The translations under genes and the position numbers were made by a program. The notes beneath the pieces are model-generated. The model was not told the DNA's origin and did no database searches. It was given only the letters and a program-made list of their open reading frames with translations. This document shows positions 10,283-11,995 of a stretch of DNA of 16,185 bases, one piece after another. The stretch comes from a virus (lineage: Duplodnaviria; Heunggongvirae; Uroviricota; Caudoviricetes): IMG/VR virus record IMGVR_UViG_2609460125_000016, positions 1 to 16,185 of that record; one strand, written 5' to 3'. Positions within the stretch are counted from its first letter, which is position 1, and every line of letters begins with the position of its first letter.

Positions 10283-11995
10283 ATGCCAGAACAATTATAC
10301 AACGTTGTTGTTTCACAACCAAGTCAGTTATTTACTTTAGCTCGCTCGTTTAAAGCAAATGCCAATGGCAAAATTTATATCGGAAAAATTGACACTGACC
10401 CGGTAAATCCTGAAAACCAGATTCAGGTTTATGTAGAGAATGAAGACGGATCTCACGTCCCTGTTTCTCAGCCAATTGTTATCAATGCTGCCGGATATCC
10501 TGTGTACAACGGGCAGATTGCCAAATTTGTAACTGAGCAAGGCCATTCAATGGCTGTATATGATGCGTATGGTTCGCAACAGTTCTATTTTCCGAATTTG
10601 CTGAAGTATGACCCTGAACAGCTTCTGCAGTTACTTCAATCTGATGAAGGGGCTACTTACATTGGCACTAATAGCGGGAAAAATCTTCAAGATGAGCTAT
10701 TTGCAATAAAAAATGAAATATATCAAGACCCGCTTACATCGTGGCCTTTCGGTGGAACATTAAAAATAAAGCAAGGGGTGTACGATATCGCGTCACCACT
10801 CGTTCTCGATTACGGCAACTATGACGCTAAATTTATTGGTTCGACAGGAGTCCGTGCTCATTATTCCGGAGAAAATATGGCAGAAACGATATTTAACTGC
10901 CATGCCTCGGATTTCAACTTAAAGATGCTCGGTGATACAGTTGGTGGCACACAGCGAGTACATGCGTATGATTATCTCGGAAATATTACGCTTAAAGGCT
11001 CAGCAACGTCTTACGGTCTTCTCGTAACCAAGAAAGCATATGCCAAGTTAGAGAATATAGTATCTTACGGACATACCAACGGCGAAGGTTTACGAACAGA
11101 CGCTGTATTGACTTCTGAATTGGATAATGTGTACCTGCAGGCAAATCGTATTGGCTGGCGCGCACTTAACTCCAGTGAAGGGTCAGAGCTTAATGCCATT
11201 ACAGTTAACCGATTAACTGCAAGCCAGAATACACAATGGGGTATACTTGGTGATAGATGGGGGGCAGGAACTACTATCAACAGCCTGACTTGTGAAGGAA
11301 ATGGTACTCAGGGGGATTCCGGTACAGGTGGTGCGCAATTAGCCATAAATGGCCTTAACGGTTCGTGTGCTTTGGTGTTAAACAACCCATACTTCGAGGC
11401 TAATGCCGGGGGGGCAGACCTTGCTATAGATAATACTGGGACGCGACCTGTAACGGTAGTTATAAACGGTGGAAATTTTCATCGCGTGAGCAGTGAACGC
11501 TACACGCACACGAATATACAAGTAACAAGCTCAGGTGGGGGAAAAGTTATAGTCTTACTCAATGGCACAACGTTCCAGAGCGCAGGGGATTATCAGCCAA
11601 GTGCAGATCGACCATACTGGATAACAGGGAACAATTGCGAATTGATCGATATTGGTTGCACCTTTATGGAAATAACCAGTAAGGCCACATCGGTTTCTGC
11701 AGAGTCAGTTACGCGCTCAGGGAGAATTAACGCCAATGGTAGTGTAGACATTGCGCCGGGTGTTTCATCCGTTAACGCGCATGCTACTGGTGTGTATGAT
11801 GTAACGTTTTCTCATCCGCTCGCAGCAGCTACTAATGGTTATGTGGTTCAGATAACACCTATATCTGCGCCTGATTCAGTTAGTTGTGATGTTACTTATA
11901 TTGGTGTAGATACATTTAGGGTGACCCTGCGCAATACGCTTAGCGGAGCAGGAATCTCTAGTTCGTTTGCATTTAGCATTACCAGGCTACTATAA
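10283..11995 (+). CDS. Tailspike protein: conserved P22/HK620-type N-terminal head-binding domain fused to a divergent receptor-binding domain
   Basis: From ATG 10283: [113 protein letters not shown] matches the P22 gp9 and HK620 tailspike N-termini as recalled. The remaining ~455 aa is Gly/Asn/Thr-rich and beta-helix-like but matches neither. Confidence 0.85.

Follow-up and report, generated by a model that had tools for sequence, protein, structure and literature searches.

Results

The tailspike gene and its domains

The window is the whole 16,185-nucleotide (nt) stretch of caudovirus DNA that was analyzed (IMG/VR record IMGVR_UViG_2609460125_000016), and the gene under study is the tailspike gene at positions 10283–11995. 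The open reading frame (ORF) starts with an ATG at 10283 and ends with the stop codon at 11993–11995; a second in-frame ATG is present at 10274. The product has 570 amino acids (aa), which is also the length in public gene calls of the identical protein. At least 24 public contigs carry an identical tailspike protein call, and the NCBI source name of a 98%-identical neighbor is Shigella flexneri. The window is 100% identical across 15,903 nt to contig KN150717.1 (assembly GCA_000754175.1), which places it in the S. flexneri chromosome. This location, together with a neighboring gtrX gene that is 99.9% identical in nt to that of SfX, identifies the gene as belonging to an S. flexneri serotype-converting prophage of the SfX type, whose tailspike it encodes. 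The features of the gene and its product are:

10283..11995, + strand: tailspike gene of the SfX-type prophage; ORF of 570 aa plus stop
10283..10330, + strand: replacement 5' end, residues 1–16, travelling with an HNH cassette; absent from Sf101 and Sf6, 99% identical to Kapi1
10283..10621, + strand: head-binding (virion-attachment) domain, residues 1–113; PF09008
10622..10729, + strand: helical neck or linker, residues 114–149, the exchange point between anchor and receptor-binding part, from model helices and alignment
10730..11713, + strand: right-handed parallel β-helix, residues 150–477, with the presumed O-antigen binding or cleavage groove
11294..11419, + strand: conserved carboxylates E338 (11294), E372 (11396) and D379 (11417), candidate catalytic residues
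11714..11992, + strand: C-terminal β-sandwich, residues 478–570; model strands 478–568, predicted local distance difference test (pLDDT) score 78–92

The initial annotation described a mosaic P22-type tailspike with a conserved head-binding domain at residues 1–113, divergence beyond KYDPEQ, and a C-terminal part with Gly/Asn/Thr-rich motifs typical of a β-helix glycanase. The described architecture and junction were borne out. Pfam Head_binding (PF09008) matches residues 1–113 with E = 4e-62 and its whole profile covered, and P22 head-binding-domain structures also match the N-terminal domain. The NLLKYDPEQ segment corresponds to residues 105–113 (nt 10595–10621). Nucleotide similarity to Sf6, APC_JM3.2, IME10, epsilon34 and many Escherichia coli prophages ends at 10621–10625, and at the protein level the Sf6 and P22 tailspikes can be aligned only up to residues ~115–126. 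No HK620 chain was found among the tailspike sequence matches to the PDB. The C-terminal part is moderately G/T/S-rich (G 11.6%, T 9.6%, S 9.0%, N 7.7%). Pfam reports no β-helix or glycosidase domain in residues 114–570, even at E ≤ 0.1; PF27114, which is assigned to distant relatives, lies outside the Pfam copy used. The phrog_17420 "tail protein" family matches the entire tailspike with E = 1e-294.

An AlphaFold2 monomer model was built from a 40-sequence alignment (mean pLDDT 77.5). Residues 150–570 are mostly modeled with pLDDT 85–97, and the head-binding domain is poorly modeled. Helices at 111–119, 123–127 and 135–146 form the neck, followed by a long parallel β-helix at ~159–457 and a β-sandwich at 478–568. 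The model confirms the predicted fold class of the receptor-binding part as a β-helix. The PF09008 domain, the gene position and the central β-helix are those of the P22-like podophage tailspikes, the gene standing at the end of the virion module, behind the genes for ejection proteins and the immI region with mnt.

Foldseek comparison of the model with the PDB returned the Sf6, P22, LKA1 gp49, phi297 gp61, AP22 and HK620 tailspikes with TM-scores of only 0.2–0.4, those for Sf6 being 0.3–0.4. A profile built from 59 family representatives gave weak PDB matches to the cap or first rungs of AlgE4, glucanases and Sf6, and hhalign to Sf6 reached 92% probability over Sf6 residues 39–326, covering the cap and first rungs only. 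These likenesses are too distant for an active site to be transferred from a characterized enzyme. Neither pairwise search nor hhalign found homology to the catalytic β-helix of the Sf6-type endorhamnosidases, including Sf6 E366/D399. The PDB, searched by sequence, contained no experimental structure of the receptor-binding part; entry 9OCC contains the sequence but models only residues 4–59.

Relatives of the receptor-binding module

A close full-length match with a known receptor, the finding named in the initial annotation as refuting it, is provided at the level of phage host range by the Sf101 tailspike, which is 84.3% identical in aa over its full length in BLASTP. Sf11 gp13 is 80.8% identical across residues 122–570, and Sf6 gp14 matches residues 1–120 only (83% identity). 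A phmmer search of PDB sequences retrieved 9OCC chain G (gp13 of the Shigella siphophage Sf11) with E = 1e-244 over residues 120–569. The SfX record L05001.1 holds the last 129 tailspike codons, of which 109 encode the residue found in the window (84.5%); the 20 differences cluster at residues ~450–520 and the final ~50 residues are identical. The SfX tailspike beyond these 129 C-terminal residues is not in the collections searched. When residues 120–570 were compared by tblastn with 50,697 phage records, identities of at least 80% appeared only in Sf101, Sf11 and SfX, and matches of ~32% appeared in one Aeromonas phage and one Pseudomonas phage. Sf101, Sf11 and SfX are the only cultured phages with a near copy of the module. 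A search of 1.84 billion cluster representatives yielded 338 related clusters at E ≤ 0.001. Close homology across the entire receptor-binding part thus places the protein in the Sf101/Sf11/SfX module (phrog_17420).

The Sf101 tailspike (ORF15) shares the head-binding domain, neck, β-helix and C-terminal domain with the window protein. Its gene has the same position, with the gp16 homologue and mnt before it and a gene for O-antigen modification behind it, and its host is likewise an S. flexneri strain with a Y-type backbone. Unlike the window, Sf101 lacks the HNH cassette, retains the ancestral N-terminus MSDIT and carries an acyltransferase gene instead of gtrABX; in the neck of its spike (positions 2953–4695 of locus L007), the 10-aa segment NLQEELFAIK occurs twice in tandem, a duplication that the window protein lacks. 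The 84% identity between the SfX-type allele of the window and Sf101 disagrees with the published statement that the Sf101 and SfX spikes have "very limited homology" in their C-terminal parts (PMC4159516). Sf11 gp13 has the same receptor-binding module and is carried in the virion of a phage that needs a serotype Y host with complete lipopolysaccharide, whereas its anchor consists of a helical bundle and Tail_spike_N (PF18668) and attaches to the distal tail protein of the siphophage. The original SfX tailspike lies in the same position beside gtrX and is a different allele despite its identical C-terminal end.

The Sf6 tailspike endorhamnosidase (PDB 2VBK, 4URR) resembles the window protein in its head-binding domain, overall β-helix fold and S. 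flexneri O-antigen target, but pairwise sequence similarity is undetectable past residue ~120. The β-helix sequences of the P22 and HK620 tailspikes are unrelated to that of the window and target other O-antigens. The Sf11 authors called gp13 "Sf6-like" (PMC12724387); judged from the sequences, this likeness is one of fold and role, not of sequence.

Members of the same spike family occur in E. coli PapM-32-1 and G3/10, in P22-like prophages at the bioA-ybhB locus (loci L010 and L011), with aa identities of 94% and 91%, respectively. The PapM-32-1 spike is followed by gtrABX, whose GtrX is 99% identical in aa, and the G3/10 spike by an acyltransferase gene. The module is therefore repeatedly linked to an O-antigen modification gene, gtrX in the window and PapM-32-1 and an acyltransferase gene in Sf101 and G3/10. 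When the receptor-binding part is compared with the PapM-32-1 and G3/10 alleles, the ratio of nonsynonymous to synonymous substitution rates (dN/dS) comes to 0.09–0.11, which shows purifying selection and indicates a working protein. A direct literature search for an S. flexneri-like O13/O129/O135 backbone in the G3/10 and PapM-32-1 hosts gave nothing. One review lists "O35,129" among the Symbioflor 2 serotypes, with the strain not named there.

Host ranges point to the unmodified backbone

SfX induced from strain 2002017 converts a serotype Y strain to X, and no plating occurs on 1a strains (PMC3306764). For Sf101, plating is seen on Y and 1a, is ~10^5-fold lower on 1b and 3b, and is absent on 2a, 2b, 3a, 4a, 4b, 5a, 7a and X (PMC4159516). 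Sf11 gp13, reported as a trimer, was detected in virions by mass spectrometry and fills six tail-tip spike densities, with the protein beyond residues 4–59 represented by an AlphaFold model (PMC12724387). Mutants of PE577, a serotype Y strain, that are defective in waaC, waaG or waaL do not support Sf11, which is independent of OmpA, OmpC, OmpF and enterobacterial common antigen (PMC12724387). Because the Sf101 and Sf11 spikes are close to that of the window, their host ranges include serotype Y and SfX converts Y, the receptor would be the unmodified serotype Y-type O-antigen backbone and not the GtrX-modified product.

The specificity, called unassigned in the initial annotation, is thus assigned at the level of phage host range through the Sf101, Sf11 and SfX relatives, and the description applies only in the biochemical sense. 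The annotation also linked the spike to the adjacent gtr operon. That link stands, with the backbone before GtrX modification as the probable receptor in place of the modified product.

Candidate catalytic residues

Conservation was scored among 59 representatives with 25–63% identity. E338 is kept in 54, E372 and D379 in 56 each, and R401 in all 59. In the model, E338 and E372 lie at the ends of equivalent strands on neighboring rungs, a spacing that we take to resemble the catalytic pairs of the P22, Sf6 and HK620 spikes. These properties make E338, E372 and D379 candidate catalytic residues. The S. flexneri O-antigen backbone contains no uronic acid, and a lyase mechanism is therefore excluded. 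A hydrolase, either an endorhamnosidase or an endo-N-acetylglucosaminidase, is the likely activity of the spike.

Mosaic junctions and the HNH cassette

The mosaic is finer than first described, with residues 1–16 derived from an HNH cassette and a patchy receptor-binding part. Alignment locates the exchange point in the helical neck just past KYDPEQ, and the strongly conserved part begins at QDPLT (residue 147). Three N-terminal anchors are joined to the module in a large protein collection: Head_binding, Tail_spike_N PF18668 (Sf11-like), and a T7 tail-fiber N-terminus plus PF18668.

Compared with Sf101 and SfX, the receptor-binding part is a mosaic in its own right. Stretches such as 10823–10882, 11303–11362 and 11483–11722 have only 50–65% nt identity to Sf101. 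Comparison of window positions 11606–13333 with L05001.1 gave 99.9% identity for gtrX and 87% for the adjoining 390 nt of the tailspike gene, with the last ~150 nt identical. The near-identity of gtrX to SfX beside a spike end at only 87% nt points to a recombination patch or boundary inside the C-terminal part of the spike gene.

The cassette (9765–10330) interrupts the 5' end of the ancestral tailspike gene just behind codon 5 and supplies the new start and residues 1–16. Two further features belong to this region:

9760..10260, − strand: HNH endonuclease gene; PF13392, phrog_99
9750..9764, + strand: relic of the ancestral tailspike start (ATGTCAGATATCACC, MSDIT), identical to the Sf101 start

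The region upstream of the ATGTCAGATATCACC relic is likewise identical to Sf101, which is without the cassette. Phage Kapi1 has a 99% identical copy, and in E. coli AR_0058 the same cassette precedes an unrelated 724-aa tailspike. From these two occurrences, the HNH cassette moves between tailspike genes in the manner of a homing element.

The surrounding prophage

Upstream of the tailspike gene are P22-type virion genes encoding coat, gp4, gp10, needle, gp7, gp20 and gp16 homologues, followed by the mnt repressor gene. Downstream and convergent with the tailspike gene are gtrX, which encodes a 421-aa glucosyltransferase, gtrB and gtrA:

9368..9661, − strand: mnt/arc-type repressor, part of the immI region that precedes the tailspike; PF11423, PF03869
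12004..12031, no strand assigned: probable terminator, a GC-rich hairpin where the tailspike and gtrX genes converge; 11-bp stem, consensus match
12062..13327, − strand: gtrX, serotype X-specific glucosyltransferase; matched to SfX L05001.1, phrog_19534 glucosyltransferase
13340..14257, − strand: gtrB, bactoprenol glucosyltransferase; PF00535, ~93% nt identity to gtrB of SfI, SfII and SfV
14254..14616, − strand: gtrA, flippase; PF04138 and nucleotide matches

The hairpin has a perfect stem with 8 G–C pairs and is likely a terminator common to both genes. The locus has the composition of a Gtr serotype-conversion module, with gtrA, gtrB and a serotype-specific gtr gene at the attachment-site end. 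A search for a tRNA gene at the gtrA-proximal attachment site found none. Beyond gtrA come an integrase fragment and IS3-family transposase genes, with yaiC-proC-aroL behind them. Within the window, positions 14966–16185 hold the integrase fragment (a 124-aa ORF) and an IS3-family transposase gene running off the end, and locus L001 continues with more insertion sequence (IS) genes before yaiC-proC-aroL. The SfX lysogen has the same arrangement of gtr end, resident int remnant beside the SfX attachment site, IS elements and yaiC (PMC3306764).

Compared with loci L002 and L004, to which it is otherwise identical, the window lacks one nucleotide near 506, and this deletion splits the coat gene at 183–1477 into overlapping ORFs (183–647 and 557–1477). 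The frameshift reflects either a defective prophage or an assembly error.

Discussion

The domain organization, relatives and host ranges fit an SfX-type tailspike that binds, and most probably cleaves, the Y-type O-antigen, after which the gtr operon masks the backbone; we regard this account as a whole as quite probable. The head-binding domain would dock the presumably trimeric spike on the tail hub, and the neck would join it to the β-helix module and C-terminal β-sandwich. The module would bind the unmodified S. flexneri backbone of the serotype Y type, Rha-Rha-Rha-GlcNAc (Rha, rhamnose; GlcNAc, N-acetylglucosamine). The backbone would most probably be cleaved hydrolytically with E338 and E372/D379 as acid and base, and the virion would work its way down to the outer membrane. 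Following lysogeny, the adjacent gtrA-gtrB-gtrX genes would glucosylate the backbone to serotype X, so that the substrate is gone and phages with this spike are excluded. We infer the trimer, the hydrolase activity, the catalytic residues and the bond cleaved.

Several observations weigh against this account. Host ranges are phage-level data that are also shaped by immunity and later steps, and of the two phages Sf101 and SfX only Sf101 plates on 1a, so either fine specificity differs or other factors act. The 1993 SfX tailspike differs from that of the window in 20 of its 129 known residues, and a match of this allele to the SfX induced from strain 2002017 could not be confirmed. The receptor-binding part is without an experimental structure, since 9OCC models only gp13 residues 4–59, and the structural model is a monomer. 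No purified and assayed protein of this spike family was found, Pfam is without a glycosidase domain in the tailspike, and the hhalign alignment to Sf6 stops short of the active site. The coat gene is frameshifted, so the prophage of the source strain may be defective.

A decaying prophage would make the tailspike gene of the source strain an inert remnant, which is rather unlikely. It would account for the split coat gene, for the IS3-family transposase genes and integrase fragment that flank the gtr end, and for the truncated 333–372-aa spike versions in many genomes (P0041, P0062). The tailspike ORF is nevertheless intact and identical in at least 24 public contigs, and in several of these the coat gene is unbroken; its dN/dS is about 0.1, and the 1-nt deletion may be an assembly error. 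The proposal also describes the state of the prophage and not the function of the protein. A spike whose β-helix recognizes the serotype Y O-antigen without enzyme activity, binding reversibly on the way to the membrane, is improbable. Conservation of the three carboxylates and the arginine across representatives with 25–35% identity is hard to explain by the binding of different glycans, the E338/E372 spacing is presumably that of the P22, Sf6 and HK620 catalytic pairs, and the characterized P22-like tailspikes are all enzymes. The pairing of the tailspike with gtrX in two different prophages is the one point that favors a spike directed at the GtrX-glucosylated serotype X O-antigen, with the operon making and not removing the substrate. 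This arrangement is highly improbable given that SfX plates on and converts serotype Y (PMC3306764), that Sf101, whose spike is 84% identical, gives no plating on X, 2b or 3a (PMC4159516), that Sf11 is propagated on serotype Y (PMC12724387), and that known seroconverting phages block their own receptor by modification.

The tailspike of the window is an ordinary, largely explained and already catalogued member of phrog_17420, and identical copies are annotated in public S. flexneri genomes. Tentatively, the module may be a second solution to attacking the S. flexneri O-antigen, independent in sequence of the Sf6 spike and perhaps with another bond or active site, an idea that is possible and still doubtful. 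If it is true, cleavage of another bond (e.g. GlcNAc-Rha) would explain the differing serotype tolerance of phages such as Sf101, which plates on 1a and not on X. The module is common to podophages (SfX, Sf101), the siphophage Sf11 and spikes with T7-fiber N-terminal anchors. The practical value of the finding is modest: SfX, Sf101 and Sf11 use this module, not the well-studied Sf6 one, on serotype Y Shigella. It would make a sensible target in glycan-binding or diagnostic work and in studies of the resistance of gtrX lysogens to these phages.
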